Both the position numbers and the translations under genes were made by a program. Under the pieces are notes generated by a model. The model saw only the letters and a program-made list of their open reading frames with translations. It ran no database searches and was not told the DNA's origin. This document shows, piece by piece, positions 1,765 through 20,475 of a DNA stretch of 42,624 nt. This DNA is from Myxococcales bacterium. Lineage in GTDB: Bacteria; Myxococcota_A; Polyangia; Polyangiales; Polyangiaceae. The stretch is taken from positions 1-42,624 of the forward strand of contig JADIZX010000009.1 of assembly GCA_016704525.1 (NCBI GenBank), written 5' to 3'. Numbering within the stretch: position 1 is the stretch's first letter; each line of letters opens with the position of its first letter.

Positions 1765-1922
1765 CCCCCCTACGGTAGTAGCGCGAGGCGCGGACGGCAA
1801 ACGGCTCGGCGAGGCTCGCGGCGCCTGGTCGCGATGGCTCGCAGACTTCGCCTCGCGGGGTCGTGCTCGGGTCGCACGAGTAGCGAGTGCCTAGCGGACG
1901 CGGCTCCGCGCGTCCTCGGACA

Positions 1923-2303: not shown

Positions 2304-2790
2304 GGTGAAGCCTCCCCAACGCGCTAGGCGCGCCCGAGCTGTAGCGCACGCCGGGCCGGCGTCAAGCAGCGAAAGACCGGCTCATGGATGGCTCACCACC
2401 TGGGTCAAGGCGCCTTCCTCGTTTAAGCGAAGGCCCAAGGCCCCCCCAGACGAAGCCCTCCTCTCGAACGCCGCGGTGCCCGACTGACGCTCGACCTCCG
2501 AGACGACCTCGGCCTTCGACCTCGAGGCCGACACGAGCGGGAGGGTCTTCAGTGTCTGCTCTAGCTTGGGCACGGTGTTCGTGGTCGAGCTCGTCTTTGA
2601 GATAGGCGTGGCACCGGCGTGCGGCGGGAGCGTCACGTCCTCGCCCAGGCGAGCCTCGAGCACCCGCGCACGGATCGCGCGCCCGGATCGAGAAATCAGG
2701 CCGGCGCACGGTGGCACGCCGGTCCCCACGCGGTTTCCCGGGAACTGCGGGGGAAGGCGGCTGGCACGACGCCTGCACTAGCGAACCTCT

Positions 2791-3150
2791 ATGAAACAGA
2801 TCCTATCTATTATGTTCGTCGGCATGTTGGTGGCCTGCGGCGGCGTGGCGATCGAGTCCGCGTCCGACTCGGGGGCGGCCGACTCGGCCCCCACGAGCGA
2901 CGCTTCGGCTGCGCGCGACTCGGCCTCCGACGCGCGGGGCCCAAAGGACGCGGCGATCGAGACCGACGACGCAGGCTGCCCGGTCGACTTCGCCGCGGCC
3001 GCGGGCACGCCGTGCAGCCCGCCGGGGCGCGGCTGCGGGACCTGCACCGATCCTTGCCAATTCTGCCGCGTGCTCCGCTGTCAGCTCGGCAAGTGGGAGA
3101 ACCTCGAGGTGTTCCCGCTCCCCTGCGACGCGAGCGCCGAGGGCGGCTGA
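2791..3150 (+). CDS. small cysteine-rich lipoprotein (hypothetical)
   Basis: Signal and lipobox: MKQILSIMFVGMLVAC. Ser/Asp/Ala-rich linker, then 10 Cys in the last 60 aa. Transcribed divergently from the 1923-2303 gene. Confidence 0.55.
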   Translation: MKQILSIMFVGMLVACGGVAIESASDSGAADSAPTSDASAARDSASDARGPKDAAIETDDAGCPVDFAAAAGTPCSPPGRGCGTCTDPCQFCRVLRCQLGKWENLEVFPLPCDASAEGG

Positions 3151-3345
3151 GGGGGCGCGTCGGCAGAGCCAGGGGTCGGCCGCGTCGCTCACGGGCGGGC
3201 CCTCACCCCTCGCGGGCCCTCACCCCTCGCGGGCCCTCACCCCTCGCGGGCCCTCACCCCTCGCGGGCCCTCACCCCTCGCGAAACGGCACGAGCCCCAC
3301 GCGCCCCTCTCCCACGAGGGGAGAGACGCGTCCGCGACCGCGATC
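3150..3345. repeat. partial copies of the MITE-like element family, joined by five tandem 18-bp repeats (gggccctcacccctcgcg, 3199-3289)
   Basis: A right end (agtcggccgcg.cgctcacgggcgg) is joined to five reiterations of the terminal-repeat motif. This is followed by a left end and the first hairpin (cccctctcccacgaggggagag). The same motifs occur at 9215-9395 and 11455-12425. Confidence 0.7.
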
Positions 3346-3383
3346 CCCGAGGCGACGGTGGCGGCGCCCCGTAGCATGGGACG

Positions 3384-3770
3384 TCAGGATGTGAGAACAC
3401 TGACGCCGATGGCGTGTGCGGCGAGCGCCTCAAGATCGTGCGCGTCGGACGTAAGAACAGTGCCATCCGGCTCGGCATAGGCAACGACGAGGGCGTCCAC
3501 GGCGGAGCTTGTCTTGGCAAGCCGACGAAGTTGAGCGGCGCGACGGGCGAGCGATTCGGGGAGATGTTCGATGATGTCGCAGGTCTTAAGGAACTGATTC
3601 GCTGGGGCATCTCGTCCGGCGTGACCCTGAAGACACTCGACGAGCACGACCGCGGGAACGCGAGGAGGCCACTGACCGGTGCGCAGGAAGGCCCGAATCC
3701 GAGTGTTGGTGTCCTTGGACTGGCGCGCGAGGAGGGAAACTCCGCCAGAATCGAGAACGAGAGTATTCAT
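3384..3770 (-). CDS. PIN-domain (VapC-like) toxin
   Basis: Sequence MNTLVLDSGGVSLLAR... carries the conserved acidic residues of a PIN fold: D near the N-terminus, E in VVLVECLQ, D in AVDALVV, and D in TSDAHD. SD ggaagg. The start lies in a 4-nt ATGA overlap with the upstream gene. Confidence 0.7.
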   Translation of the reverse strand: MNTLVLDSGGVSLLARQSKDTNTRIRAFLRTGQWPPRVPAVVLVECLQGHAGRDAPANQFLKTCDIIEHLPESLARRAAQLRRLAKTSSAVDALVVAYAEPDGTVLTSDAHDLEALAAHAIGVSVLTS

Positions 3771-4015
3771 CCGACCTTCCGAGTGGACCGGCGGGCGCCC
3801 TTGCGAACCCACGCGTCGGCGCGGGCCTGTTCCGCCGGTGTCGGCTCGCCGAACTTGTCGGTGAGGCTCGCGAGGTACTTCTCCGTCTCGGCGAGCAGCT
3901 CCTGCCGGCGCAGCTCGGCGGCGAGCGCCTTCTGCAAGATCTCCGAAACCGGCAGACCGCTGGCCTTGACCTGCTGGTAGAGCTGCTCGGGAAGGTAGAC
4001 CTGCATGCGCGCCAT
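3767..4015 (-). CDS. ribbon-helix-helix (CopG/Arc-like) antitoxin
   Basis: MARMQVYLPEQLYQQVKASGLPVSEILQKALAAEL is a typical RHH N-terminal beta-strand plus helix. Its stop overlaps the PIN start (ATGA). The start could instead be the next in-frame ATG (MQVYL, 4006). Confidence 0.6.
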   Translation of the reverse strand: MARMQVYLPEQLYQQVKASGLPVSEILQKALAAELRRQELLAETEKYLASLTDKFGEPTPAEQARADAWVRKGARRSTRKVG

Positions 4016-4149
4016 ACGCCTAAGTATACACCGAGCGAGCACGGCCTGCACGTGCGCAGGCTCGGCGCAGAATTGGCGATGGAGGTGTGGGTCAGGTGTG
4101 GGTCGGACCCGACGCCACACCTTGAGCTCGGGCCGCGCTCCGGTCCACG

Positions 4150-4514
4150 CTACTGAAGTACCACCTGTCCACCCCAATCTCCCGTTCCGCCCGACGACAC
4201 GCTCAGGCTAATGTCGAAGGCTCCGGCGTCGAAGGACTTGCTCTCATAGGTGCCGGCTCCAATCAGATACGAGCCGACCGGCAGCTTCGTGAGCGTCGCA
4301 GTCGGCACGGTAGCTGTCCCATCGGCGAAGTCGTACTCGCACGAGAGCACATGCACGGGGTATCCTCCCGTCTTCCAAAGCGTGAAGCCGATCTTGCCGA
4401 CCTCCCCGGATCCTCCGCTCCACGAAAGGACGATATCCTGATTGCGGGGGAGGCGTTGACCGCTCACGAGGACCGGCCCGGTGACCGTAAAACTCTTGGG
4501 TGTTCGGAGGGTCT

Positions 4515-4540
<26 letters not shown>
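4150..4540 (-). CDS. C-terminal domain (about 130 aa) of a protein whose upstream part is replaced by the G/C-only tract
   Basis: Well-behaved coding sequence (FTVTGPVLVSG...GSYLIGAGTYESKSFDAGAFDISLSVSSGGTGDWGGQVVLQ, beta-rich) ends at a stop at 4150. Upstream of about 4540 the frame continues into sequence that codes only Gly/Pro/Ala/Arg. The true N-terminus is unknown. Confidence 0.35.
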
Positions 4541-5849
<1,309 letters not shown>

Positions 5850-5854
<5 letters not shown>

Positions 5855-7376
5855 TCTCGGCGGCGCGGAGGCGGGCGAGCATGACCGCGGCGGGCTCGTC
5901 GGTGGGGTCCTGGGGGACGAGCTCGCCGCGGAAGGCCTTGGCGAGGAGGGGAGCCCTTCGAGGCTCCGGCGAGGGCCTCGTAGAGTTCGGCGCTCGTCAA
6001 CTCCTGTACCGGGATTGCCGCGAGGGCACGCCGCCTCAGTCGGTCGCGGAGGACGGTCTGTTCACCGGCCGGCGTGAGCGGCATGGGGAAGCGCCCGCAT
6101 GGCTCCGATGTTGACATGTGGTGCTGCGGACAACCACACTTGAGCATCTAGGAACCGCCGCGCTCGCCCATGCGATGCCCTAGTTGAACGCCATCACATG
6201 CGGATCGACGAACGACACGACCTGGTGGGCGACGCGCAAGGATCGCGCGCAGATAACGGGGGGGGGGCCGGGGGGGGGGGGGCGGTCGGCTAACGATCGG
6301 GGATGGCACATGCCGTGCCGAGGCGCTCGCCTCCGCGAACGACGAGATGTCCCGGGGGCCAGGCGGACTTCGCCAATTCCGCATGGACGTCGGGCGGATG
6401 CAGCGAAGCCCAGAAGGACTCGTAGCGATTCGCCCGGACGGTTCTGGACCGAAGAACGGGAACGCCCTCCGCCACGTAGCCGGGCTCCATCGGGCAGACG
6501 TGCCCGACAGTGATGTCCGGTGAGCGAAGGTCCTCAGCCGATGCCCAACACCACCCCTCCGGCAACTCCGGCAACCCCGTCGCATCGACCGGCTCGGGCT
6601 CCTTGTACTTCCCCTTCCACGCGTCATCCCGCGGGGCCTTCCCCTTGGCGGTCATCTTGGCGAGCTCGGCCTCTTCCCACTTCTTCCGGCGCTCCACGCG
6701 GATGCGCTTCAAGAGCTCGCTCGCGGGCTCCACGTCTCTGTTCTTCGCGCGCCAGTCCTTCGTGAGGTCCCCGCGAAAGGCCGCCGCGAGGATCGACTGG
6801 CGGAGCTTCTCGAGCAGCGGCGGCACGGCGTCGAGCGCCGCGCGGGCGCGACGGGAGCGGGCTTGGAGGGATTCGAGCTTGGCGACGATGCGGCGTTGTT
6901 CGTTGAGGGGGGGACCGGCAAGTCCATTTCCGCAAAGCGCCCGCCCCGAGGTGGCGCGATGTTCGTCGTAATCTGCGCCAACGGAACGAACGCGCCGCTC
7001 TTCAACCAGTTTCGGAATACGCCGAGCGCAAAGGTGGGCTCGACCATCGGGGAGGCCTGAAAGCGGACCAGCGAATTGCTGAAGCAGGCCCCTGGCAGCT
7101 CACCGCGAGACATCGCCGGGCGACCCACCTCTTCGCGTCTGTCCCTCGTTCAGAAGGATGTCCCCCGGGCTGCGCAAGTAGCGCCCACTCCACGCGGCTC
7201 GAAGTGCATCTGCATGACGTCGCTGATGCCGATGCGATCGTTACGTTCGCGACTCGCAGGTACGGGAGCATATTCGGCCCCCGGTGCACGTCGGGAGAGC
7301 GCTGGCGGCCAAGCTGGACCTTGCCCGCCTCGCGAACTTTGACTTGGCACCATCCGCTCGGAAGCTCCTTCGTCAC
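5850..7376 (-). pseudogene. hsdS: Type I restriction-modification specificity subunit HsdS, disrupted by at least 3-4 frameshifts
   Basis: The start overlaps the hsdM stop (ATGA at 7373-7376). TRD1 begins MTKELPSGWCQVKVREAGKVQ. The central conserved repeat (LNEQRRIVAKLESL...PPLLEKLRQSILAAAFRGDL...EPASELLKRIRVER) lies in another frame. TRD2 begins LPELPEGWCWASAEDL. The C-terminal conserved repeat (LLAKAFRGELVPQDPTDEPAAVMLARLRAAE, 5870-5960) is in a third frame. The frame breaks coincide with G7 (6907-6913) and G10CCG14 (6263-6290) tracts. Confidence 0.75.
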
Positions 7377-8809
7377 GCCCCCAGCTCCTCTTGAAGCGCC
7401 GCCATCTCCTCCAGCGCCACCTGCAGCTGCGCAACAATCTCCGCGGCGATCTCCTCCGGCTCCGGGAGATCCGCGTGGTCGGTCACGCTCTCATCCCGCA
7501 GCCACGAGATATCCAGGTTCTCCCCCCGCTTCGCGATCTCCTCCCGCGTGAACTTCCGGAACCGCCCCGTCTCGCCCTGATCCTTCCGCTTGCTCTTCCC
7601 CAGCGGATCCGCCCCGTAGGCCTTCTCGAACTCCGCGAAGTGCGCGCGCGTGAACGGCGTGCGCTTGCCGAACGAGGGCATGTTGGTGCGCAGGTCGTAG
7701 AACCACACGGCCTTGGTGTTGCCCTTGTCCTGCTTCTTCTCCCCCCGCGTGAAGAAGAGCACGTTGGTCTTCACGCCCTGCGCGTAGAAGATGCCCGTGG
7801 GCAGTCGCAGGATGGTGTGCAAGTCGCACTTGTCCATCAGGTCAGCGCGCACCTGCTTGCCCACGCCCTCCTCGAAGAGCACGTTGTCCGGGAGCACCAC
7901 CGCCGCGCGCCCGCCGGGCACGAGGCCTCGGTAGATGTGCTGGAGGAACACGAGTTGCTTGTTGCTCGTGGGGTACGTGAGGTCGTCGCGCGTGGGGGCG
8001 CCGCCGCCCTTCTTGGTGCCGAAGGGGGGATTCGTGAGGATCACGTTCGCCTTCGGCAGGTTGGCGCCCGAGGGGCCGAGCGTGTCGCCGAGCACGAGGT
8101 CGCCCTCGATGTCGTGGAGCATGGCGTTCATGAGCGCCAGGCGCTGCACGTCGGCCACGAGCTCCATCCCCTGGAAGGCCTCGCGTCGCTGGAAGTTCTG
8201 CTTGGCCACGGGCAAGTCGTGGAGATCGTCGGTGTTCGCCTTCACGTACCTGTCGGCGTTGATGAGGAATCCCCCGGTGCCGATCGCGGGATCTTGGATG
8301 ATTTCGCCCGGCTGGGGCTTCACGAGGGCGACCATGCTCTCGATGAGCGCGCGCGGCGTGAAGTATTGCCCCGCGCCGCTCTTGGTCTCCTCCGCGTTCT
8401 TCTCGAGCAGGCCCTCGTAGAGGTCCCCGAGCCCCTCGGACTTGGCGCTGTACCAGTCGAGCGCGTCGATCGCCTCGACCACCGTGCGCAGGTTCCGCGG
8501 CTGCCGGAACGAGGTGCCCGCGTTGGCGAAGATCGCCTGCACGCGCCCCGAGCCTTTGCCGCCGAGATCGATGAGGAGCTTCTTGTAGAAGTCGAGCAGC
8601 TCCACGCCCTCTTTGTTGACGAGATCGCCCCAGCGATAGCCCTTGGGGAGCTGGTCCTCGGTGCCTGTCTCCTTGGTCATCTTGAGGAAGAGGAGATAGG
8701 TGAGCTCGGTCACGTACTGGAGATACGTGATGCCGTCGTCACGGAGGACGTGGCAGAGGTTCCAGAGCTTCTGGACGATGTCGTTCGTGGTCGGCGCGGC
8801 GGGTGGCAT
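7373..8809 (-). CDS. hsdM: Type I restriction-modification DNA methyltransferase subunit HsdM (N6-adenine)
   Basis: HsdM N-terminal domain (NDIVQKLWNLCHVLRDDGITYLQYVTELTYLLFLK). SAM-binding motif (DPAIGTGGFL). Catalytic NPPF (VILTNPPFG). Internal ATG at 8809 chosen; the 5' extension of the ORF looks Arg-rich and non-coding. Confidence 0.9.
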   Translation of the reverse strand: MPPAAPTTNDIVQKLWNLCHVLRDDGITYLQYVTELTYLLFLKMTKETGTEDQLPKGYRWGDLVNKEGVELLDFYKKLLIDLGGKGSGRVQAIFANAGTSFRQPRNLRTVVEAIDALDWYSAKSEGLGDLYEGLLEKNAEETKSGAGQYFTPRALIESMVALVKPQPGEIIQDPAIGTGGFLINADRYVKANTDDLHDLPVAKQNFQRREAFQGMELVADVQRLALMNAMLHDIEGDLVLGDTLGPSGANLPKANVILTNPPFGTKKGGGAPTRDDLTYPTSNKQLVFLQHIYRGLVPGGRAAVVLPDNVLFEEGVGKQVRADLMDKCDLHTILRLPTGIFYAQGVKTNVLFFTRGEKKQDKGNTKAVWFYDLRTNMPSFGKRTPFTRAHFAEFEKAYGADPLGKSKRKDQGETGRFRKFTREEIAKRGENLDISWLRDESVTDHADLPEPEEIAAEIVAQLQVALEEMAALQEELGA

Positions 8810-8933
8810 GTCGGGGGCGAAGGTAGCATGGGCGCGCGCCTCGCCGGCCTGTGCCCTGCCCGGCCCGCCTACTCCTGCGTCGAGCGAGGGATCTGGACCA
8901 CCCACAGGCGCGTGGCCCAGCGGAGCGAGAGCT

Positions 8934-9176
8934 TCAGCGCTCGCGAGCGCGATGCACGTCCTCGGGGGCGATCCCGAGGTCACGACCGGACAGGATGTCC
9001 TCGATCCTCCGATCGACCTCAGGCGGCACCGTCTCACCCGAGGTGTCCTCCGGCGCGCGCACCATCACCAGGACGGCGGGGTGGCTGCGCATGTCCTCGG
9101 GCCACTGCTCGAGCGCCACGCGCTCCGCCTCGGTGGTCTCGGCGGTGTCGAGCTTGCGCGCGGTGTTCGGCGACAT
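8934..9176 (-). CDS. small acidic hypothetical protein (80 aa) immediately upstream of hsdM
   Basis: Strong GC3 bias in frame. 18 Asp/Glu versus 11 Arg/Lys. No motif I recognise. Same strand as hsdM with a 125-bp gap. Confidence 0.4.
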   Translation of the reverse strand: MSPNTARKLDTAETTEAERVALEQWPEDMRSHPAVLVMVRAPEDTSGETVPPEVDRRIEDILSGRDLGIAPEDVHRARER

Positions 9177-9214
9177 GGTCGAGGTCTAGCACGCGTCGGC
9201 GAGGGCGCGCGCGG

Positions 9215-9395
9215 TGAGCGCCCGCGACGCTCGCGGCCCTCACCCCCTCGCGCAGCGGCACGAGACCCACGTGCCCCTCTCCCACAAGGGGAGAGGGGCC
9301 CTTTCCGGAGCAGCTCGTGTGGCCCCTCTCCCCTGGTGGGAGAGGGGCACAAGTCGCCCGCGCCGCTCACGGGCGGGGTGAGGGCTCGCGGGCGT
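9215..9395. repeat. single copy of the MITE-like palindromic element: terminal inverted repeats gggccctcaccccctcgcg / cgcgggcggggtgagggc with two internal hairpins
   Basis: cccctctcccacaaggggagagggg and cccctctcccctggtgggagagggg are perfect hairpins. The flanking ends are inverted complements of each other. Homologous to the units at 11455-12425. Confidence 0.75.
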
Positions 9396-9531
9396 GGTGG
9401 GTGGGTCGCCCTTGTCTTCCGGGCTCGACGCTGAGCTGACGGCCCTTGGCGGCGGCGAACACCGGGCGCCCCGCGCGCCCAGATCGCTCGAGCGCACGGC
9501 AGGTCGGAGCAGGACGTGCTATTTTTCGAGA

Positions 9532-9777
9532 ATGGACAACGGGCCCGAGGCCCGCGCCGCGCGGCGCCGGGCGACCTGGAACTGGGAATGCCGAGTCGCG
9601 AAGACCTTCGCGGAGCACGAGCAGGACGGCCTCGATTTTTGGGCGGATGCGCCAAGCTCGGCGAAGCTCGACGCCATGTGGGACCTCATCGTCGAGGCTT
9701 GGTTGCTCGGAGGAAAGCGTGGACCTGCACCCCGATTTCAGGGATCTGTTGTCGCAATTCGCCGCTTCGAGCGTTGA
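9532..9777 (+). CDS. small hypothetical protein (82 aa), 5' partner of the nucleotidyltransferase gene
   Basis: ATG at 9532 follows an unusually AT-rich stretch (ctatttttcgagaATG). MDNGPEARAARRRATWNWECRVAKTFAEHEQDGLDFWADAPSSAKLDAMWDLIVEAWLLGG... It overlaps the next gene's start by 59 nt. The start is uncertain, since the ORF is open from 9394. Confidence 0.35.
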   Translation: MDNGPEARAARRRATWNWECRVAKTFAEHEQDGLDFWADAPSSAKLDAMWDLIVEAWLLGGKRGPAPRFQGSVVAIRRFER

Positions 9778-10141
9778 CTACTTGATGATCGGTGGCTGGG
9801 CGGTGAGCTTCCACAGCGAGCCGCGCTATACTAAAGATCTCGATCTGCTCTTGGTCGGGAGTGACGACAATCTCGCGAGAGCGGCGGAGGCCCTCGGCGC
9901 CTTCGGGGCGCCACGTTCGGTCATCGACCTGCTGCTCGCGCTCGGGCCGGAGGAGTTCAGCTCACTCGTCGCCGTCGCAGGCCAGACGCTCGAACGCGTC
10001 CCCGCGGCTCACGCGAGTCCATCGAGGATCCCTCGCGACCTCCGCAAGCGCCGCGCGGTCCTCGTCGCCAAGCGCGGGCCCCTCCTCCGCGGACGCGAAC
10101 GCGAGGGAGACGGCCTTCTTTGCGGTGGGAGCCATGACTGA
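9719..10141 (+). CDS. minimal nucleotidyltransferase-fold (MNT/AbiEii-like) protein
   Basis: GTG at 9719 with SD ggagga 4-5 nt upstream. The motif YLMIGGWAVSFHSEPRYTKDLDLLLVG matches the GG-x(9-13)-D-h-D-h signature of Pol-beta-superfamily minimal NTases. Preceded by FRDLLSQFAASSVDY. 140 aa. Confidence 0.55.
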   Translation: MDLHPDFRDLLSQFAASSVDYLMIGGWAVSFHSEPRYTKDLDLLLVGSDDNLARAAEALGAFGAPRSVIDLLLALGPEEFSSLVAVAGQTLERVPAAHASPSRIPRDLRKRRAVLVAKRGPLLRGREREGDGLLCGGSHD

Positions 10142-10294
10142 GGAGTAGCGCGTCAGGGCGCGCCCGTCACCCACGCCCCGCGACACGTCCGAGAGGCAGC
10201 TCTGACGCCGTCGGTGAGCTGCGTGCCGCGGAGGCGCGCCCGTCACGGACCGCTCGGGTTGCTCGGTCACGGCGCCGGAGGTATCGTGCTCCGC

Positions 10295-11398
10295 ATGAGC
10301 GCGGGGTCTCCGTTGGGGTGTGCGCTACGCGAGCAGCGTGACGCCCTCGGCTGTTCAGCCGAGCGACTCGCCGCGCTCTCCGAGCTGCCCGTCGACAGAG
10401 TGCTCGCCCTCGAGCAAGGCGCGCAGGCGACGACCCGTGAAATCGCGAAGCTGGCGTCAGCCCTCGCCGTGGATCCCGCCGCGCTGTGGCGAGGCGAGGT
10501 CAGCCTGCCTCGAACGACCGCGCGATTCCGTGCGCCGAGCGGCGTCGCGTCCCTCGCGGAGGGCGACGCGCGGCTGCTCGCGCGGGCCGCAGAGGCGGGG
10601 CGCGTCCTCGCGCATCTGCGCTCGCTGCGCGGCGAGGAGGCGGCGTCCGTCGTGGCCCGGAGGAGGGTGTCCGGCGTCGCCGGGTGGCCCGAGCCCTGGG
10701 ACCAGGGCTACCGGCTTGGCGCGAGGCTGCGAGCCGACCTCGGGCCCGGCAAGGCGCCAATTCCTTCGGTGCAGCGCCTTCTCGAGGAGCACGGCGTGCA
10801 CGTCGCCTGGAGCGCGTTCGAGAGCGGCGACGTGATCGCGGCCAGTCTCTACGAGCCCGGCGCGGCGCCCGTCATCCTGCTCAATACGAGGTCGCCGAGG
10901 GCGAGGGCGAGGCTCTCACGCCGAGCTGTCCTGGCTCATGAGCTCTGCCATCTCGTGGTCGACGGCGGCGAGACGGACCTGCTCACGCTCGTCTCCCGCG
11001 GCGTCGACGCGACCGAGGTCGAGCAACGGGCGAACGGCTTTGCCCCTAGCTTCATCGTGCCCGGAGGGTGGATATCGCCCCACACCACCGACGTCCGACA
11101 GCTCGCTCTCGACGTCGCCACGGAGTGGGGGCTGAGCTTCGAGGGCGCTCTCTGGCACTTGAAGAATGCGCAGCACATCGGGGCGAGGGATGTCGAAGAG
11201 GAGCTGCGGCGGGAGGCCGTCGTCATTCCAGAGGGTGCGTTCGAGGGCGACATCGAGCGCCGAGAGCCGGCGCATCTCCGTCTGGACGTGACGATCGGTC
11301 CCCTCGCATACGGGGCGCTCTCCGACGTGACACTCGGCGCCTTCGAGGCCGACATGATCTCCCGAGGTCGCGCCGTCGAGATCCTCGCGCTCGCATGA
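10295..11398 (+). CDS. XRE-family HTH fused to an ImmA/IrrE-family zinc metallopeptidase (COG2856/DUF955-type)
   Basis: N-terminal HTH (LREQRDALGCSAERLAALSELPVDRVLALEQG). HEXXH zinc motif (VLAHELCHLVVDG). Internal ATG at 10295 chosen; the ORF is open from 10214. Confidence 0.7.
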   Translation: MSAGSPLGCALREQRDALGCSAERLAALSELPVDRVLALEQGAQATTREIAKLASALAVDPAALWRGEVSLPRTTARFRAPSGVASLAEGDARLLARAAEAGRVLAHLRSLRGEEAASVVARRRVSGVAGWPEPWDQGYRLGARLRADLGPGKAPIPSVQRLLEEHGVHVAWSAFESGDVIAASLYEPGAAPVILLNTRSPRARARLSRRAVLAHELCHLVVDGGETDLLTLVSRGVDATEVEQRANGFAPSFIVPGGWISPHTTDVRQLALDVATEWGLSFEGALWHLKNAQHIGARDVEEELRREAVVIPEGAFEGDIERREPAHLRLDVTIGPLAYGALSDVTLGAFEADMISRGRAVEILALA

Positions 11399-11454
11399 CG
11401 TGGCGTGAGCCCCGAAGGGGCGAGCGCAGGTCGATGGCGAGCCCGAGCCGTAGG

Positions 11455-12425
11455 CACGCGGGCCCTCACCCCCTCGCGAATCGGCACGAGCCCCACGTGC
11501 CCCTCTCCCACAAGGGGAGAGGGGCCCCTTTCCCGAGCAACTCGTGTGGCCCCTCTCCCCTGGTGGGAGAGGGGCACGAGTCGGCCGCGACGCTCGCGGG
11601 CGGGGTGAGGGCTCACGGGCGGGGTGAGGGCTCACGGGCGGGCAGAGGGCTCGCGCGCGGGCAGAGGGCTCGCGGGGCGGCTCACGTCGGGCGCGACTCT
11701 CGCGGGCCCTCACCCCCTCGCGAATCGGCACGAGCCCCACGTGCCCCTCTCCCACAAGGGGAGAGGGGCCCCTTTCCCGAGCAACTCGTGTGGCCCCTCT
11801 CCCCTGGTGGGAGAGGGGCACGAGTCGGCCGCGACGCTCGCGGGCGGGGTGAGGGCTCGCGGGCGGGGGTGAGGGCTCGCGGGCGGGCAGAAGGCTCGCG
11901 GGCGGGCAGAGGGCTCGCGGGGCGGCTCACGTCGGGCGCGACTCTCGCGGGCCCTCACCCCCCCTCGCGAATCGGCACGAGCCCCGTGCCCCTCTCCCAC
12001 AAGGGGAGGGGCCCCTTTCCCGAGCAACTCGTGTGGCCCCTCTCCCCTGGTGGGAGAGGGGCACGAGTCGGCCGCGACGCTCGCGGGCGGGGTGAGGGCT
12101 CGCGGGCGGGGTGAGGGCTCGCGGGCGGGCAGAAGGCTCGCGCGCGGGCAGAGGGCTCGCGGGGCGGCTCACGTCGGGCGCGACTCTCGCGGGCCCTCAC
12201 CCCCTCGCGAATCGGCACGAGCCCCACGTGCCCCTCTCCCACAAGGGGAGAGGGCCCCTTTCCCGAGCAACTCGCGTGGCCCCTCTCCCCTGGTGGGAGA
12301 GGGGCACGAGTCGGCCGCGACGCTCGCGGGCGGGGTGAGGGCTCGCGGCCGGGGTGAGGGCTCGCGGCCGGCTTGAGGGCTCACGGGCGGCGTGAAGGCT
12401 CACGGGCGGGGTGAGGGCTCACGGC
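11455..12425. repeat. array of four tandem units (period about 243 bp) of the MITE-like palindromic element
   Basis: Units begin at about 11461, 11704, 11950 and 12190. Each has the left TIR, hairpin 1 (cccctctcccacaaggggagagggg), hairpin 2 (cccctctcccctggtgggagagggg), the right TIR, and variable gggcgggcagagggctcgcg sub-repeats. Units are contiguous with no unique spacers. Confidence 0.85.
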
Positions 12426-12759
12426 CGGCCAGCCACTCCCGAAAGCGCTCGAGCACCGCTTCCACGTCTTCCTCCACGTCGGCGGCCGTGACTCGCCAAA
12501 CACGCAGCCCGGAGGCCTCGAGAGCGCTCTGTCGGTCACGGTCGGCCTCGACCCGATCGTCGTGGATGGGCCCGTCGACCTCGACCACGACTCGGAGCTC
12601 GGAGCAGTAGAAGTCGACGACGAACCTGCCCATCGGCTGCTGCCTCCTCCACTTCGTCCCGGCGAACCGCCCGAGTCGCAGCGCCTCCCAGAGGACCGTC
12701 TCCGATCGCGTCTGAGTCCTCCGCAGCCCCCGGGCTCGCTCCGTCATTCTCCGCGCCAT
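12400..12759 (-). CDS. DUF559 (Vsr-like) endonuclease-domain protein
   Basis: TQTRSETVLWEALRLGRFAGTKWRRQQPMGRFVVDFYCSELRVVVEVDGPIHD...SGLRVWRV matches the DUF559/very-short-patch-repair-like fold. It lies 28 bp downstream of hsdR on the same strand. Its last about 8 codons run into the repeat array, so the true stop is uncertain. Confidence 0.7.
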   Translation of the reverse strand: MARRMTERARGLRRTQTRSETVLWEALRLGRFAGTKWRRQQPMGRFVVDFYCSELRVVVEVDGPIHDDRVEADRDRQSALEASGLRVWRVTAADVEEDVEAVLERFREWLAGREPSPRP

Positions 12760-12786
12760 CGACCTCTCGCGTCACGCGCCCGCCAT

Positions 12787-15700
12787 CTATCCCACGTCCC
12801 TCCACACCTCTTCCGCCAGCTCACCCAGCAACATCTCGAGCTTCCCGTCGAACACCTTGTTCAGCCGCGCGAAGCCGCCGTCGGTCTTGAACTGTCCCGC
12901 ATCCAGCGAGGCCTTGTCCACCACGGTCTCGAGCTTCACCTGCTTGGCGATGCGGTCGAGCCACTTGGCCTGGGGCTCGGTGAGCTTGTGGGCCTTCCGG
13001 AGCCGCGCCACCGCGCGATCCACGCGCTCGCCGTAGGGCACGAGCGGTGAGCCGAGCGCGGCCTGGCGGATGTAGCCGACGATGGTCGCGGCGACGTCCT
13101 CGTTCTTCTGCTCTTTCCATGCGGTCTGCACCGACTTTTCGCCGTAGCCCTCCTCGTCGAGCGCGAGCTTGAGCGCCTTCAGGTCCGCGCGCGTGAGATC
13201 GCGCGGGCGCTGGACCACGACCAGCAGCGCGGGGAGCTTGTTCATGTGGCGCGTCACGAAGTCGCGGAACGACTCGAGGTAGTCGGCGGGCGGGCGGCTC
13301 CCGTGCTTGCCATAGCCGCGCGTCACCTCGCGGAGGCCGTCGGCGTGCTCGGACACGAGCACCTTGTACTCGCCGCCGCCCACGGTGCGGTCGAGGAACG
13401 GCGCGAGCGAGGGGTGGGCCCGCAGGTAGGCGGCCGCGTCGAGCACCGTGCCGTGCTTGAGGAGCTGCGTGAGCTCGCGGAGGTCCATGCCCGCCGCGCC
13501 CTGGAAGGGCTCCTGCGCGTCTCCCTGGAGCGCCCGCTTCTTGCGCTGGAGCTTGGCGAGGAGCTCCTCGAGCGACAGGCGCCGGTGCTCGTCGTTCGTG
13601 CCCTCGAGGATCTCCTTCGTGAGCTGCTCAAAGGTCACCTTCGGGTTGACCACGACCGGCTTCATGTCGGTCACGCTCTCGAGCGCGGCGTAGAGATCCA
13701 CGGCGTCGAAGACGCGAAAGCGCTCCTTGCCTATCTCGGGGCACAGGCGCGTCGCGCGGCCCATCATCTGCTCGTAGAGGATGCGGCTCCGCACGCGGCG
13801 CAGAAAGACCAGGTTGGCGATCTTCGGCACGTCGATGCCCGTCGTGAGGAGATCGACCGTGACGGCGATGTTCGGGTGGCGCTCGTTCCGGTAGCGCCGA
13901 ATGGCCTCGAGCGGCCGGTCGGTGGTCCCCGTGATCTTGAGCACCGCGTCGTCGTCGACCTCGCCGAACTTCTTCGTGAGCTCCTCCTTCAGCAGCGTGA
14001 CGACCATGTCGGCGTGCTCGTCGGTGGCGCAGAAGATGAGGGTCTTCTCGTCCTCGCTCGGATCGATGTGGTTCTGGACGAGCTCGGCGAGCACGACGCG
14101 GTTCCAGCCCTCGGTGATGACGCGGCGGTTGAAGGCGTCGATCTCGAAGTCGACGTTCTCGGCGAGCTTCTCCTTCTGGAGCGTCTGCGCCTTGCGATCG
14201 AGGACGAGCACCTCCTCGTGGGCCTCGTAGTGAATGCCGTCGTGCGCCTGGTGCGTGACGATGCGAATGGGCGGCTCGTGGTCCACCAGGAAGCCGTCCA
14301 CGACGGCCTCGCGGTAGCCGTAGGAGTACACCGGGGCGCCGAAAATTTCGCTCGTGTGGAGCGCGGGCGTGGCGGTGAGGCCGATCTTGGTGGCGTCGAA
14401 GTGGTCGAGCACGCGCCGGTACTTCGAGATGTAGTCGTCCTCGTCGCGAAACTCGAGATCACGCTCGGAGAGCTCGCGGTCGAGCAAATACCCTCGATGG
14501 CACTCGTCCACCACGACGCAGTCGTACTGGTCGACGGGCGGGATGTTGGCCTCGCTCGCGTCGTCGTGAGGGCCGAGCACGCGCTTCACCATGGCCTGGA
14601 TCGTGGCCAGCTGGAGCTTGGTCTCGCGGTCCGGCTTGAGATCGCCGAGCTCCTTCACGTCGAAGATGTCGGTGAAGGTCTGCAGGTTCTCGAGGCGGAG
14701 ATCCTTGAGCGCGTCCCCGGTCTGGCGGCCGAGCGCGCTCCGGTCGACGAGGAAGAGCACGCGCCGGAAGCGCTTCGTCTTGAGGAGGCGGTACACGAGG
14801 CCGATGCACGTGCGCGTCTTGCCGGTGCCGGTCGCCATGGCGAGCAAGAGCTCGCGCTGCCCCTTCTCGAGGCCCGCCTCGACCGCGAGGATGGCCTTCC
14901 GCTGGTACTCGCGGTCGATGTACGGCATCGGCTCGACCTGGAGCTTCGCGTGCGCTTCGTCCACGTCCTGGCGCAGGAGGTCGACGAGCCCGTCGGGCGT
15001 GTACCAGCCCTCGAGGGCGGTCGGATGGTTCTGGGGCCGGCGCGCGTCGAGAAACCAGATGCCGCTCTTCGCGTGGAACTGCCGGAGGTACGCGCGGCCG
15101 TTCGTGGCGAAGAGGAACGGCACTTTGTGCGCTCCCCACGGGCTCCCCTCGGGGAGAGACTCGCCGCCCTTCACGAGGTATCCCGCGGAGTACCGCTTGG
15201 CCTGGGGAATGACCCCCGACACGTCCTTGTGCTTGCGCTTCGCCTCCACCACGCCGACCACCTGGAGGCCGGCGAAGAGCACGTAGTCGGCCCAGCCTTC
15301 CCGGCCGTCCACGCGCGTGGGCCACTCGGCGATCGCGAGGTTCTTGCCCTTCGTGGGGCGCGCCCCTCGCTCGAACGTGAGCCCTTGGGAGTCGGCCTCC
15401 CAGCCCGCCGCGCGGAGCTGATGGTCAATCAGCCGCCGCGTGGCGGCTTCGTCAAGGTGGATGTCCTCGCTCGCCTTGTGGGCGACGCCGATGCTCTGCG
15501 CGAGCGCGGCCGGAGGCATCGCGACCGCGGCGGCCTGGAGGGCCGCGAGCTCCTCCGCGAGCTTCTTGTTCTGGGCGAGGAGCGCGGCGCTCTTCTTCGC
15601 CTCGGCCTCGAGCTGCTCCTTCGCGAGCTCCTCCCAGATCGCCGCGTCGTCACGCGCCTTCTGCGCGCGCTGCTCGGCAGTCGTGCGCCCCGCGAGCTCG

Positions 15701-16259
15701 GCCTCGGCGGCCTCGCGCGCCTCCTCGATCGCCCGCTGGGCGGCCTCGAGATCCTTCGTGCGCGCGCGGACGTCGTCGCGCAGGCGCTGGAGCTCGTCCT
15801 CGAGGGCGGCCTCGGGGCGCTGCGGGGGAGAGGGCGGCACGAACGGGCCCGGATCGAACTTGCGGTTGTTGCCGAAGCTCCGCTGAAACCAGACCCCCAG
15901 CTCGCGCGCCATGCGGAGCTGGTGGAGCGCCTCGCCGTGGTCTCCCCGGCCCTCGTGCACCGCGGCGTTGCCGACCCGCCGGAGATCGTGAAAGAGCGAG
16001 CGCTGCGTGGCGCCGATGACGTTCCGCTCCCAGAGCCGATCGATGAGCTGCTGCTGCCCGTCCTGAGGCCCCACGAAGAGCCCGACCTTGGCCGCCGCGC
16101 GCTGCGCGAGCTGCTCACCGAACGCGCGGAGCTTGAAGAGCGTGACCGAGGGATCCCCCGCGAAGTGCTCCTCGGCCTGCGTCGCGAGCGCCACGAGCCG
16201 CGCGTCGTGGTGCGCGAGATAGGCGAAGTTGGGTGACGGAGCGGGCGGCGCGGGAGGCA
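12787..16259 (-). CDS. hsdR: Type I restriction enzyme R subunit HsdR (1157 aa), with an N-terminal DUF4145-like domain and a long coiled-coil
   Basis: ATG at 16259 (MPPAPPAPSPNFAYLAHHDARLV...) chosen; the 1383-aa ORF upstream of it is Arg/Gly junk. Helicase motif I (LLAMATGTGKTRT), motif II (VVVDECHRG), motif III (GLTATP) and HsdR-type C-terminal region are present. Coiled-coil EDELQRLRDDVRARTKDLEAAQRAIEEAREAAE... Confidence 0.9.
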
Positions 16260-16553
16260 TGGGCGGAACGTGGAGGATACACGGATCGAGGGGTGGGTTC
16301 CCAGGGGATCGGGCCAGATCTCCGACTCCTTCCACGGAGCGAGCGTCATCGACGAGTCGACCGCGCCGATGCTTCGCGCGGCTCGAGGGACGCCGGCACG
16401 CGCGGGCGCGGATCGACGTGCGCACCGGCGTTGCCAAGCCAGCGCCAACCGGCGACGCTCGGCGTCGCGCTGCCCGACTGGGATCACCGCTACGAGGCGG
16501 CATCCGTTGAGCTCGTCGTCTCTGCGGACGCGAGGAACGTGACGCGGACATCT

Positions 16554-17624
16554 TCACCCCGACAGGACATCCTCCAGCGTCGCGGCGGTGAGCACCCGCT
16601 CCGCCCAGGTGTCGAGCGTGGCAGCGTCCGCGGCGTCGAGTCGCGCGTTCGCACCCTCGGGGAGCGCACCGAACCGGAGAGCGAGCTGCTTGCGCAACAT
16701 GACGCGTCGACCTTGGACCTCTCCGACGATGATTCCTCGTGCCTCTCCCTTTTGCATCAACTCTTCGCCTGCGGTCATGAGCGTCTCCTTCAAGCGTTCG
16801 TCCGGGAGCGCCCCACGAAGCTGTTCCAGTACGATCCGCGACTCCGCGGGGTGGACCATCATCACATAGCGCAGGACGGTGTCCAGCGCCGCCCTCCCGT
16901 GTGGCGCCATCATGATCTCGAGCGCCACGTCCGCCCACGCGCCCAGATGGCGCACGAGCTCCTCAGGGTCGCGCGCGCGGCGGAAGCAATAGAGCACCAG
17001 CCGGCCGAGCGCGGACATCGCGCGCGCGCGAAGCGCTTCGTCGGTCTCGGTGACGAGCTCGTCGAGCACGAAGCGATGGCGCAGCACGTGCGCGCCCGCG
17101 GCCCGGAGGGTCGCTTCGTCGAGATCGTACAGCTCCTCGAGCGAACGCGCGGCCGTCCAGCCAGCGTCGCCGTGGTGAAGGACGACAGGGACGAGCGCGG
17201 GGAGCACCGTCGCGCCGGGGTTCTCCTTCAGCCACGACTCCCAGATGCGAACGGCATAGACCACCAGCCGAAAGGGCATGAGCGGGTGCGGGGTGCTCTG
17301 ATGCTCGTAAAGGAGATAGAGACGGGCCTCGCGACCCGAGAGCGACACGCGGAACAGAAGATCGGTGTGGCGGCTCTTGAGCTCGGCGTCCACGAACGAG
17401 CCAGGGACGGCCTCGAGCGTGTCCCAGGAGAACCGCGCCGCGAGCCCCTTCGGGAGCGCCGTGCGGAGCGCTCCCTCGGCGTGCCGCGGGTCCGAGAACG
17501 TGGACTTGAAGAGGGCGTCGTGGGGGCTCGGGGGCACGTGCCCAAGATGGCAAAGTCGAGGCCAGCGCGAGCAGGCAGGAATCCTCGGGCGGCGTGGGGG
17601 CGCCGATTGTCCGGGACGGCTCAT
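16554..17624 (-). CDS. Rpn-family recombination-promoting nuclease / putative transposase (PD-(D/E)xK, YhgA-like)
   Basis: HDALFKSTFSDPRHAEGALRTALP...FVDAELKSRHTDLLFRVSLSGREARLYLLYEHQST...FRLVVYAVRIWESW is the hallmark N-terminal nuclease core of the Rpn/transposase_31 family, with a DUF4351-like C-terminus. The start is uncertain: ATG at 17624 leaves an atypical 34-aa leader, and a GTG near 17546 is possible. Confidence 0.7.
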   Translation of the reverse strand: MSRPGQSAPPRRPRIPACSRWPRLCHLGHVPPSPHDALFKSTFSDPRHAEGALRTALPKGLAARFSWDTLEAVPGSFVDAELKSRHTDLLFRVSLSGREARLYLLYEHQSTPHPLMPFRLVVYAVRIWESWLKENPGATVLPALVPVVLHHGDAGWTAARSLEELYDLDEATLRAAGAHVLRHRFVLDELVTETDEALRARAMSALGRLVLYCFRRARDPEELVRHLGAWADVALEIMMAPHGRAALDTVLRYVMMVHPAESRIVLEQLRGALPDERLKETLMTAGEELMQKGEARGIIVGEVQGRRVMLRKQLALRFGALPEGANARLDAADAATLDTWAERVLTAATLEDVLSG

Positions 17625-18208
17625 GGGGTGTCCTGGACGGCGCCCCATGCGCGGCCTCCCGGTCGAGGGAGGCGAGGTGATATCGTCAGCGCGTCAGAAG
17701 GGTCACGGACGACACGCCAGCGTCGATCCCAAGCTCGCGCGCCAGAGCGACCAGGCACGCGACGACTCGCCCACGGTTGACGCGCACATAGCGTGTGCCG
17801 TTGGACCTGGAGCGCGGAGCAGGGGCGCCGTCCATTCGCTTGCCCACGAATGCCGCGCGACGGCGCCCGATAAGAGGTGGGGGGGTTCCACCCGGACGGT
17901 TTCTTACGTCACGGTCTCTTGCAGGCGCTGACGCCGTGCAGCGCCGTGCAGGCCACCTGGCACGGCGGCGGGGGAGTGGCGCCCGGCGTCGCAATTCTGC
18001 CGTGGAGCACGACGTGAGCCCGCGTTGCCCCCCGCTCCGCTTGCTGGGCGCCCAGGAGACCCCGGCGCCCCGACACCCACAACCCACCGCCGCCCTGAAC
18101 GCCCGCCCCTCCCCACCGCCCACCACCACCCCTTTTCTTCCCCCGTCCCTTGCTCGCCGGCCCCCTTGAAGTAGGGTGACGTGGGCGAAATCGCTCGAAA
18201 GGCACCCC

Positions 18209-19837
18209 ATGAAGTCATCGTCTGGATCCCTCGCGCGCGGGCTCTCGCTCTTTGCGTTCCCCGCGCTCCTCTCGCTCGGCGCTTGGCTCCCCGGCTGCTC
18301 GGCCACGATCGACGAGGGCACGCCCACCGCGACCGACGAGGACGACCTCACGAGCCTCACGGCGCGCTCCCGCGAGCTGCGGTTCGAGGGGCTCGTCTAC
18401 GTCGAGGTGGGCGCGAGCGACGCGACCATCCTGAAGGCGGCGCGCGCGCAGAGCCAGTCGGCGTTCGGCGCGCTCCTCGCCCTCGAGATCTCGGTCGAGA
18501 GCCGCGAGCTGAAGGACATCAGCCCGACCACCTTCAAGAAGCGCGAGGTCACGGTCTTCGACACCAACAACCCGGGCGACCGCGGCAAGGCCCAGCTCGA
18601 GGTGAAGTACCAGTACCGCGACAACGCGGTCGTCCCCACGGCGCTCTCGCGGCGCACGTCGCTGCCGCTCGCCGTCCTTGGCGGCGCGTTCGACACCGAG
18701 GCGAACCGCGCCACCATCGTGGCCGCGTGCACCAAGAACGACAAGGAGGCGCGCGACGACGCCGCCTCGGGCCTGCTCTGGTACGACTTCAACCCGAGCA
18801 AGGCCTCGTGCAAGGCCGCGATCACCGACGAGCAAGAGAAGGTCGACGCCGACCGCGCGAAGCTCGCCGACGCGCGCACGCAGGTGCCGCGATCGCAGCT
18901 CGACAGGCTCTATGTGCCGGCCACCATGAGCCTCGGCGCCGCGAAGACGACACGCGGCTCCACCTACCCCGAGTACGACAAGCTCTTCTCCCAGGGCGTC
19001 ACGCCGGGCAAGCTCACGATCGGCGCGCTCACCGGTCGCCTCGCCCACGACCACGTCGAGGCCACCAAAGACGACGGCTACTATGAGTGGATGGACATGC
19101 TCGGCGTGGTGTTCGAGGCCCACCCGGGCTTCACCCTCACCAAGATCGATCCCCCGGAGGACATCACCACGGTGACCGTGGGCAGCAAGCGCCTCGAGGG
19201 GCTCAAGTTCGCCGACGTCATCCAGTGGACGGTCTACGACATCGGCTACCCGAGCGGCCTCACCGCGGCCGAGAAGACCGAGCTGCGCGTCAAGATGGCC
19301 CAGAAGCTCGACAACCACTGGCTCACCTTCGAGATGCCCACGAAGGTGTCGATCAACGGCGGCGCCGCGAAGGAATTCGGCATCGTCCTGAACACGAGCT
19401 TCGGCGCCGAGGAGGGGGCGACTCCCTACAAGCGCGCCATCAAGACCAGCGACGTGTTCGTGTTCAACGGCCACTCGTACATTGGCCGCGGCCCGCTCGA
19501 CCCCGCGAACTTCCGCGCCAGCGACTTCCCCTCCACCTACCAGCTGCTCTTCATCGACAGCTGTGTATCCTACAACTATTACAACGAGGGGTATTTTCTC
19601 GTGAAGCCCGGCGGCACGAAGGTGCTCGACACCATCACGAACGGCATCGAGGCCCCCGAATACCAGAGCGGCATGGCCGAGGGGCAGCTCATCGCGAAGC
19701 TCATCGACGGCTCGATGCCGAGCTACCAGACCCTGCTGCGCGAGGCGAAGGCGACCGACCCCATGCGCGTCGTCGACGGCGAGGTCGACAACACGTACAG
19801 CCCCACCCGCACCCCCATCAAGCTGGTGCGCCCGTGA
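18209..19837 (+). CDS. large lipoprotein (542 aa) with a possible clan-CD-like His/Cys dyad (hypothetical)
   Basis: ATG at 18209. Signal and lipobox: MKSSSGSLARGLSLFAFPALLSLGAWLPGC. C-terminal region has VFVFNGHSYIG followed about 30 aa later by LLFIDSCVSYNYY. That spacing resembles the His-Gly...Cys catalytic dyads of caspase/gingipain-like peptidases. This is pattern-based only. Confidence 0.55.
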   Translation: MKSSSGSLARGLSLFAFPALLSLGAWLPGCSATIDEGTPTATDEDDLTSLTARSRELRFEGLVYVEVGASDATILKAARAQSQSAFGALLALEISVESRELKDISPTTFKKREVTVFDTNNPGDRGKAQLEVKYQYRDNAVVPTALSRRTSLPLAVLGGAFDTEANRATIVAACTKNDKEARDDAASGLLWYDFNPSKASCKAAITDEQEKVDADRAKLADARTQVPRSQLDRLYVPATMSLGAAKTTRGSTYPEYDKLFSQGVTPGKLTIGALTGRLAHDHVEATKDDGYYEWMDMLGVVFEAHPGFTLTKIDPPEDITTVTVGSKRLEGLKFADVIQWTVYDIGYPSGLTAAEKTELRVKMAQKLDNHWLTFEMPTKVSINGGAAKEFGIVLNTSFGAEEGATPYKRAIKTSDVFVFNGHSYIGRGPLDPANFRASDFPSTYQLLFIDSCVSYNYYNEGYFLVKPGGTKVLDTITNGIEAPEYQSGMAEGQLIAKLIDGSMPSYQTLLREAKATDPMRVVDGEVDNTYSPTRTPIKLVRP

Positions 19838-20220: not shown

Positions 20221-20475
20221 CGACGCGCGCCGTCCGTCGAGCGGCGCGGGCTTCGGCGCTCCCGCGGTGGTCGGGCTCGGGCGGCAGGCGCACGAACAGC
20301 CTCTCAGCACCGCGTCGACACACGGGCCTGCGTGTAGAACGGATCGATCTCCCCGACCCACTCGGGAGGAGGCAAGGGACCACCGCCCGAGGCCGTCGAG
20401 CGAGGTCGCCCCCCCCGCTCGATCAGGCAGAGTTGCAGCTCCTCTTCGAGCCCTCAGGACGGCGAGCCCGCGCGC

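Follow-up and report, generated by a model that had tools for sequence, protein, structure and literature searches.

A stretch of 42,624 nt (hereafter the window; positions 1 to 42,624 of contig JADIZX010000009.1, assembly GCA_016704525.1, ~70% GC) carries a Type I restriction-modification (R-M) locus in which the restriction gene, hsdR, stands apart from the modification and specificity genes, hsdM and hsdS. We believe, with a probability of roughly 80%, that this is an EcoKI-like locus whose variable spacer between hsdR and hsdM is a hotspot for insertion and recombination, filled with decayed toxin-antitoxin-like cassettes and palindromic repeats. In Type I systems, two HsdM subunits and one HsdS methylate a bipartite target, and together with two HsdR subunits they make up a nuclease that translocates with the use of ATP and attacks unmethylated DNA. 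The locus is chromosomal and belongs to the genome of a Polyangiaceae member (a soil myxobacterium) obtained from a metagenome, and its gene order, hsdR followed by hsdM and hsdS, is typical of the family.

The hsd genes and the R-M spacer in related loci

The two genes that border the spacer are both intact. On the minus strand, hsdR (12787-16260) encodes a restriction/translocase subunit of 1157 amino acids (aa) with an N-terminal DUF4145 extension, and its product matches the NCBIfam model NF008521 over the full length (residues 10-1155; 1484 bits against a cut-off of 729) as well as the PADLOC profile REase_I (9.5e-252). The Pfam domains of HsdR (DUF4145, HSDR_N, ResIII, Helicase_C and EcoEI_R_C) and its motifs GTGKT, DECH and D...EAK are those of a PD-(D/E)xK nuclease combined with a superfamily 2 helicase/translocase. 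Also on the minus strand, hsdM (7373-8809) encodes an N6-adenine methyltransferase of the EcoKI type, with the motifs NPPFG and DPAIGTGGF and with matches to Pfam N6_Mtase (8.5e-74) and HsdM_N (9.3e-09) and to PADLOC MTase_I (2.6e-221, 734 bits). Among solved structures, the best match of HsdM is EcoKI M (2.3e-169, 567 bits), followed by StySJI (323 bits) and EcoR124II (57 bits); for HsdR, the PDB search gave no match to an EcoKI chain. An earlier note on this DNA had identified both genes and had the coordinates of hsdM right, but gave 16259 as the outer coordinate of hsdR; its reading frame starts at 16260, because 12787-16259 comprises 3473 nt, which is not a multiple of 3.

The resemblance to EcoKI, the Type IA system of Escherichia coli K-12, thus includes the R-M-S order, the closeness of HsdM to EcoKI M and a long HsdR of ~1150 aa with an N-terminal extension and a full-length NF008521 match. 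The two differ in their host, here a myxobacterium with 70% GC, and in the R-M spacer, which is short in EcoKI and 4 kb long here; the likeness to Type IA is one of sequence alone. As a separate observation, HsdR residues 10-204, the DUF4145 region, also match the PADLOC candidate PDC-M16A (9.4e-23), and DUF4145 would thus be a domain common to HsdR and another candidate defence protein.

Three relatives with hsd genes were available for close comparison. In L001 (GCA_963852875.1, a Polyangiaceae-type metagenome-assembled genome, 814-kb contig) the HsdM protein is identical to that of the window, and the DNA is 98.7% identical across 12.3 kb, with scattered substitutions. A further close relative is L082 (GCA_016720545.1, 618-kb contig), and L016 is a 6.8-kb contig whose hsdR and hsdM DNA is 94% identical to the window. 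Between the window and L001, hsdM differs at 16 synonymous and no non-synonymous positions, and the ratio of non-synonymous to synonymous substitution rates (dN/dS) of hsdR is 0.11 against L001 and 0.11 against L016. Both genes are hence under purifying selection and maintained, and they are probably still functional.

Divergence from L001 is uneven along the window. The left flank (355-4540) holds 5 mismatches in 4.2 kb, whereas the hsd region (6543-18811) holds 125 in 12.3 kb, with a synonymous divergence (dS) of 0.04-0.05 in hsdR and hsdM; this contrast suggests allelic exchange of hsd genes. The DUF559 and Rpn-like genes next to hsdR, described below, are far closer to their L001 counterparts (dS ~0.01).

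The spacer between hsdR and hsdM measures 3,977 nt (8810-12786). The same split, with the same order and the same junctions, is present in L001 and L082, and since these two public assemblies agree independently of each other, the split is not a misassembly. Furthermore, a spacer at this position is no peculiarity of the window. Our HsdM scan returned 80 loci, which belong to Myxococcota, Planctomycetota, Cyanobacteria, Xanthomonadales, Firmicutes and one archaeon. Of these, 75 hold both hsdR and hsdM, and in all 75 the order is hsdR-hsdM-hsdS, with hsdR upstream of hsdM and co-directional with it. The gap between the two genes ranges from 1 to 5197 bp: 30 loci have less than 150 bp, 22 have 150-1000 bp and 23 have more than 1 kb. 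In 60% of the 75 loci the two genes are 290 bp or more apart, and the premise of the earlier note that hsdR usually adjoins hsdMS fails in this group. In one locus (L005, 3634-9959) the HsdR matches extend over 6.3 kb instead of 3.4 kb, which may reflect an insertion inside hsdR or a second copy.

The genes found in these gaps are diverse. Recurrent families include Fic with DUF4172 (4 members), DUF4258 (3) and AAA_21/AAA_15 (2), and further gap genes encode DUF4357, DUF4917, HipA, GmrSD, HepT with NTP_transf_2, DUF559 and Uma2 proteins. Even the closest relatives carry different cargo, namely two PQQ-like propeller proteins in L004, DUF4917 in L015, an AAA_21 ATPase in L017 and unknowns in L002. 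The spacer of the window itself occurs in four versions among near-identical relatives, i.e. in L016 and L082, with flanks 94-99% identical to those of the window, and in L083 and L084, two short contigs with the spacer cassette and no hsd genes. The L016 version has an intact nucleotidyltransferase (NTase) gene, no XRE-M78 gene, a DUF559 gene of 23 codons and one repeat unit; the L082 version has XRE-M78 followed by a frameshifted partner gene and no repeat array; L083 and L084 have an intact NTase gene and XRE-M78, with repeats on the flanks. Genes thus lie between the core genes, and their content varies among homologous systems. The earlier note had read the R-M spacer as an insertion hotspot and had proposed comparing relatives to learn which genes between hsdM and hsdR vary; both the variable gaps of the 75 loci and the four states of this particular spacer bear that reading out.

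What is known of EcoKI offers a reason for this tolerance. There, transcription starts from two promoters, one ahead of hsdR and the other in the interval between it and hsdM, and hsdR is followed by a terminator (PMC12707154); a junction organised in this way should therefore tolerate insertions. By analogy, hsdR and hsdMS would be separate transcription units in the window as well, and the spacer between them could accept DNA without breaking either one. From gene orientation alone, we infer a layout of three units. The first, on the minus strand, would comprise hsdR and DUF559, perhaps preceded by the Rpn-like gene. The second, on the plus strand, would run from the small open reading frame (ORF) and the NTase remnant to XRE-M78, converging on the repeat array. 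The third, again on the minus strand, would consist of the acidic ORF, hsdM and hsdS, and diverge from the plus-strand unit across a solitary repeat.

Since R and MS are separate units in EcoKI, the split has no clear regulatory consequence, and the question of whether hsdR is still co-regulated with hsdMS, which the earlier note had raised, is largely moot. Read-through across the spacer seems unlikely given the antisense genes. The small ORF, the NTase gene and XRE-M78 lie on the plus strand and the hsd genes on the minus strand; with three cargo genes antisense to hsd, the cargo cannot be described as inserted into an operon.

Cassettes and repeats in the spacer

The spacer contains what is left of two small toxin-antitoxin-like cassettes, one a truncated pair of a small ORF and an NTase gene, the other an XRE-M78 gene that has lost its partner. 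In the first cassette, the small ORF (9532-9777, plus strand, 81 aa) is the conserved upstream partner and overlaps the NTase gene. It has no match in Pfam, PADLOC or NCBIfam and does not qualify as an AbiEi/MenA-type antitoxin. A word-indexed homologue search returned 2 proteins, and its wider conservation emerged with tblastn beside NTase genes only, where homologues (35-84% identity) overlap the 5' ends of the NTase genes in L016, L083, L084 and L091-L095. This conservation beside NTases in distant genomes argues that the small ORF is a real gene. On distant Myxococcota contigs, homologues lie at 2862-3023 in L091, 2880-3053 in L092, 357-530 in L093 and 6001-6252 in L094; public annotation leaves the homologue uncalled in L091-L093 (three of the five loci fetched) and calls it in L094 and L095.

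The NTase gene itself is a remnant. At 9719-9961 (plus strand) it keeps codons 1-81 of a DUF6036/AbiEii-like protein, and the open frame that continues to 10141 is not homologous beyond that point. Members of the family are ~150-157 aa long, and the alignments of most homologues cover no more than the first 57-59% of the window query; with the conserved C-terminal half (RVD..., DLI..KR..GR..D) missing, the product is not a complete nucleotidyltransferase. An intact allele (P0003) exists in L016, L083 and L084, with an N-terminus identical to that of the window and a normal C-terminus, and it reaches the Pfam thresholds of both AbiEii (27.9 bits against 22.5) and DUF6036. In the window, the 3' half of the gene is replaced by a translocated segment of ~270 nt (9959-10230, minus strand), which contains a 57-aa ORF (9962-10135, minus strand) and matches L016 5157-5410, located in that contig between the acidic ORF and hsdM. 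A stretch of 342 nt of L084 that includes the NTase 3' end is missing from the window, and the phase of GC content at third codon positions (GC3) switches at ~9960. Neither the remnant nor the 57-aa ORF has a match in PADLOC, NCBIfam or Pfam. Of the overlapping pair of a small protein and a minimal NTase that the earlier note had described, the overlap is thus real, but the NTase is reduced to 81 codons and the pair is on the strand opposite to hsd.

In its intact form, the small ORF with the DUF6036/AbiEii-like NTase looks like an uncharacterised two-gene module. It shares with AbiE/MenAT systems (DUF1814 NTases) the overlap with a small upstream protein and an NTase that, in the intact allele, passes the AbiEii threshold. 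It differs from them in the length of that NTase (~152 aa against the 238 positions of the AbiEii profile), in its equal fit to DUF6036 and in a small partner that matches no family, and the copy in the window is in addition truncated.

The second cassette is represented by a full-length gene (10286-11398, plus strand) encoding a fusion of an XRE helix-turn-helix (HTH) domain and a zinc peptidase of the M78 (ImmA/IrrE) family. Pfam supports the HTH-ImmA/IrrE metallopeptidase that the earlier note had recognised in the gap (Peptidase_M78 6e-10, plus HTH_31 and HTH_3), and the HExxH motif is present as HELCH. The protein matches 14 PADLOC profiles of RmrA, the antitoxin of RosmerTA (best 1.4e-20, over residues 18-284), which places it among RmrA-like proteins; its family is 362-370 aa long and is covered at 97-98%. 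The dN/dS against L083 is 0.26.

In four unrelated contexts (L085, L087, L089 and L090), XRE-M78 is followed, with a 4-nt overlap, by a gene for a protein of 171-174 aa. The window has the first three codons of this partner (MTW, 11395-11403) and then enters the repeat array, leaving XRE-M78 an orphan, while L082, which has no array, keeps the entire partner gene in frameshifted form. The pairs lie at 4001-5625 in L085, 4001-5619 in L087, 4001-5634 in L089 and 157-1790 in L090, and occur amid housekeeping genes and not in R-M loci alone. A PIN-like label for the 173-aa partner, suggested by a few motifs, was dropped as neither Pfam nor PADLOC gave support, and the partner family has no match in either database.

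RmrA-type antitoxins pair with many toxins and in either gene order (PMC10440598), and XRE-M78 with the 171-174-aa gene is a candidate RosmerTA-like pair in which the latter would be the putative toxin. The likeness, again drawn from sequence, consists of the RmrA profile match, the HExxH motif and the two-gene operon with an overlapping partner seen in relatives. What differs is the lack of the partner gene in the window and of any Pfam or PADLOC match for its family; PADLOC found no RmrT toxin on any cargo ORF, and none thus lies adjacent to XRE-M78.

Where relatives carry the partner gene, the window has a tandem array of four 243-bp units (11454-12430), situated between the convergent XRE-M78 and hsdR-DUF559 units. 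A palindromic MITE/REP-like repeat has thus been amplified in tandem and stands in the place of the lost gene. Tandem Repeats Finder reported a period of 243 with 3.8 copies (11457-12371, 96% matches), in keeping with the array of ~1 kb, resembling miniature inverted-repeat transposable elements (MITEs), that had been noted in the gap. In every unit, 19-bp sub-repeats come after a long imperfect palindrome (repeat families D1 and D2), and a single unit folds at -169.7 kcal/mol (z = -6.7; inverted pairs I6, I8, I11 and I16). A solitary unit at ~9211-9400, between the divergent acidic ORF-hsdM and small ORF-NTase units, forms two CCCCTCTCCC-N5-GGGAGAGGGG hairpins, a motif with 11 occurrences against 0.07 expected. 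Altogether, copies are found at three sites of the 42.6-kb window (3175-3330, 9211-9400 and 11454-12430) and on 6 metagenome contigs. The copy at 3175-3330 is partial and lies outside the R-M locus, where the window and L001 differ by a 34-nt indel beside short tandem duplications.

We also considered a CRISPR reading of the array, which is ruled out because the units are contiguous and 96% identical and have no unique spacers. Palindromic intergenic repeats of bacteria include REP/BIME, ERIC and Correia-type MITEs, and the repeats of the window are like these in consisting of a long palindrome, present in several copies that lie between transcription units; they are unlike them in that four units stand in tandem with 19-bp sub-repeats.

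Two further genes complete the spacer. The acidic ORF (8934-9176, minus strand, 80 aa), upstream of hsdM and co-directional with it, is a lineage-restricted ORFan. It has no match in Pfam, PADLOC or NCBIfam, and an exhaustive HMMER search against 1.84 billion representatives returned its own cluster only. L001 and L082 encode the protein at 100% identity, L016 has it in fragments, and the phase of GC content at third and second codon positions (GC3/GC2) fits the minus-strand frame, as in coding sequence.

At the other end of the spacer, the DUF559 gene (12400-12759, minus strand) starts 27 nt past the hsdR stop, is co-directional with hsdR and intact, and encodes a protein of 119 aa with a Vsr-like endonuclease fold. 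The Pfam match to DUF559 (1.8e-31) agrees with the Vsr-like gene described earlier, and the NCBIfam match to PRK09767 (1.8e-23) is below its cut-off. Truncation has left 23 codons of the gene in L016, the L082 copy is degenerate, and L046 and L051 also have DUF559 in their R-M gaps.

Could the NTase pair, XRE-M78 and DUF559 together be a working defence island that cooperates with the Type I system, as PrrC, TgvAB and DarTG2 do? Embedded defence genes are common in Type I loci and often functional, and the RmrA-like match and constraint of XRE-M78, together with an intact DUF559 gene that directly follows hsdR and recurs in the gaps of other loci, speak in favour. Nevertheless we consider this improbable: the NTase is without its C-terminal half, XRE-M78 without its partner, three of the genes are antisense to hsd where 96.7% of embedded genes are co-oriented with their host system (Payne et al. 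2024, bioRxiv 10.1101/2024.01.29.577857), and the gene set varies even among relatives that are 94-99% identical. The defence-finder check that had been proposed for the cargo did yield an RmrA-like antitoxin with PADLOC, but no toxin and no complete system, and an intact defence set is contradicted by the 3' truncation of the NTase gene and the array in place of the XRE-M78 partner. We do not expect the cargo to work as a defence module.

A more speculative idea, which we also regard as unlikely, is that the orphan XRE-M78 has been co-opted as a stress- or phage-responsive regulator of hsdMS or of hsdR-DUF559, while the repeats delete and shuffle cassettes at the R-M junction. Its basis would be the dN/dS of 0.26 and the position of XRE-M78, divergent from the acidic ORF and hsdM across a palindromic repeat. 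In a weaker version of this claim, the small ORF/NTase and XRE-M78/173-aa pairs, both largely invisible to gene callers, may represent two uncharacterised toxin-antitoxin families that could be mined from R-M spacers.

Integrity of hsdS and of the assembly

The specificity gene hsdS (5841-7376, minus strand) is in a different state from hsdR and hsdM. It had been reported beside hsdM at 5850-7376, and it does adjoin hsdM, its start at 7376 overlapping the hsdM stop (GTGA). What the earlier note missed is that the gene is frameshifted and that its 3' end is lost in non-biological sequence. In the window, hsdS changes frame at least six times, and a six-frame reading spreads the HsdS motifs over all three frames; ~10 indels separate it from L001 within 6907-7243. 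The L001 counterpart of the half that contains the first target recognition domain (TRD1) matches Methylase_S (27 bits against a cut-off of 22).

Next to hsdS lies a G/C-only stretch (4540-5840, GC 0.95-1.00). It stands where the 3' end of hsdS, an intergenic region and the 5' part of the adjacent gene should be. Its 1301 nt correspond to 1303 nt of natural sequence in L001, with both flanks collinear, and L082 likewise has natural sequence there. We therefore regard 4540-5840 as non-biological, in all probability a consensus failure of the assembly. The idea that it is natural sequence with A and T replaced was discarded, as it agrees with L001 at 58% of G/C positions against 50% by chance. 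ARAGORN calls a spurious tRNA-Pro within the stretch (5320-5416), and a second G-run occurs at 6258-6285.

TRDs have also been exchanged between strains (window 5985-7250; L001 11434-12968; L082 6439-7526). TRD1 is common to the window and L001 and different in L082, and TRD2 is common to L001 and L082 and different in the window, in three genomes that are otherwise 97-99% identical. Given these exchanges, the strains should differ in recognition sequence.

These observations bear on the possibility that the whole locus is a decaying relic, with hsdS a genuine pseudogene, restriction and modification no longer active and the spacer eroding along with the rest. The frame changes of hsdS could be read in this way, all the more as L001 also has at least one frameshift in hsdS and L082 has frameshifts in hsdM, hsdR, XRE-M78 and Rpn. 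Against this, hsdM and hsdR are intact in the window and under strong purifying selection. The hsdS indels of the window do not coincide with those of L001, and in the window they cluster beside the consensus failure, as assembly error would have it. The exchange of whole TRDs between near-identical strains, in turn, is what a specificity gene would show while it is in use. A relic thus seems to us a poor explanation, with little chance of being right. For hsdS itself we take errors of assembly, in a gene that varies between strains, to be more likely than true decay, without considering the matter settled, because the indel positions differ between the genomes, those of the window cluster by the G/C-only stretch and whole TRDs are exchanged.

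That the split itself is an artefact, with hsdR and hsdMS truly adjacent and 4 kb misjoined via repeats, can be dismissed in spite of the 1.3-kb non-biological stretch, the clustered indels and a spacer whose flanking repeats disrupt short-read assembly (both the L083 and the L084 contig stop within such repeats), as order and junctions are repeated in two independent assemblies on contigs of 814 and 618 kb and the G/C-only stretch has the length of the natural sequence between flanks collinear with L001.

Several points nevertheless weigh against our preferred reading of an EcoKI-like locus with a hotspot spacer full of decayed cassettes. No promoter or terminator was located: a consensus scan of 5800-18000 picked up 1 promoter-like site and 3 terminator-like ones, a yield not above that of shuffled sequence, such scans being uninformative at 70% GC, and the three-unit model stays an inference. 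The frameshifts of hsdS in the window and L001, and of hsdM and hsdR in L082, could stem from a truly inactivated system. XRE-M78 is constrained and the small ORF intact, and part of the cargo may function. Finally, the comparison yielded no sequence of events for the rearrangements that set the window, L016, L082 and L083 apart.

Relation to known systems and neighbouring genes

Genes embedded in Type I loci have been documented before. PrrC in EcoprrI is one such case, TgvAB is embedded in a Type I locus on VPI-2 of Vibrio cholerae (PMC11411939), and DarTG2 with RptR in one of enteropathogenic Escherichia coli (EPEC) (PMC12255303). A survey found that BREX, DISARM and Type I systems often have embedded genes (Payne et al. 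2024, bioRxiv 10.1101/2024.01.29.577857). These reports uphold the general view of the earlier note that Type I loci are docking sites for defence cargo. The locus in the window resembles them in having small foreign modules between hsd genes, with variable contents in which toxin-antitoxin and nuclease families dominate. The embedded genes described there are intact, run in the direction of their host system and have a demonstrated defence role. In the window, by contrast, the small ORF, the NTase gene and XRE-M78 are all antisense, and of these three one is truncated and one orphaned. Furthermore, the spacer contains 5-6 ORFs besides the repeats, more than the maximum of three embedded genes that the same survey gives for its Hma search; if a similar limit holds for Type I systems, surveys could miss this locus.

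We see the locus as a Myxococcota example of a pattern described mostly in Proteobacteria, in which an EcoKI-like R–MS junction collects small cassettes and turns them over. What distinguishes it is cargo that is antisense, truncated or orphaned, together with tandem palindromic repeats. On the practical side, defence finders that allow few embedded genes may report such a locus as an "orphan" hsdR and a separate hsdMS. The current understanding of Type I systems is not changed by it; its value lies rather in two conserved, uncharacterised gene pairs (small ORF/NTase and XRE-M78/173-aa partner), in the TRD variation of hsdS among near-identical strains and in a data-quality flag on 1.3 kb of this assembly.

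Upstream of hsdR, beyond 293 nt of intergenic DNA, a gene on the far side (16554-17648, minus strand) encodes an Rpn/YhgA-like PD-(D/E)xK nuclease. Its Pfam match to Transposase_31 (4.9e-40) confirms the Rpn nuclease that had been proposed as the flank of hsdR, with NCBIfam Rpn-family matches below their cut-offs. Among the fetched loci, the gene was found only in L001 and L082; several loci, including L016, end short of the region upstream of hsdR.

Ten large ORFs from other parts of the window (two at 346-954 and 3767-4177, and eight within 18176-28978) were scanned with Pfam, which gave no integrase. The Rfam scan of the entire window had a tRNA-Ser as its sole match, the repeat unit having no Rfam family. 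This tRNA-Ser(CGA) is at 22969-23054 and a patatin-like phospholipase gene at 27221-28978, in an otherwise ordinary chromosomal context (porin, FKBP, YceI). Just left of the G/C-only stretch, a small ORF at ~3767-4015 (minus strand), which starts MARMQVYLPEQLYQQVKASGLPVSEILQKALAAELRRQE, gives a weak match to CcdA (7e-4, below the cut-off) and may be a candidate ribbon-helix-helix antitoxin.

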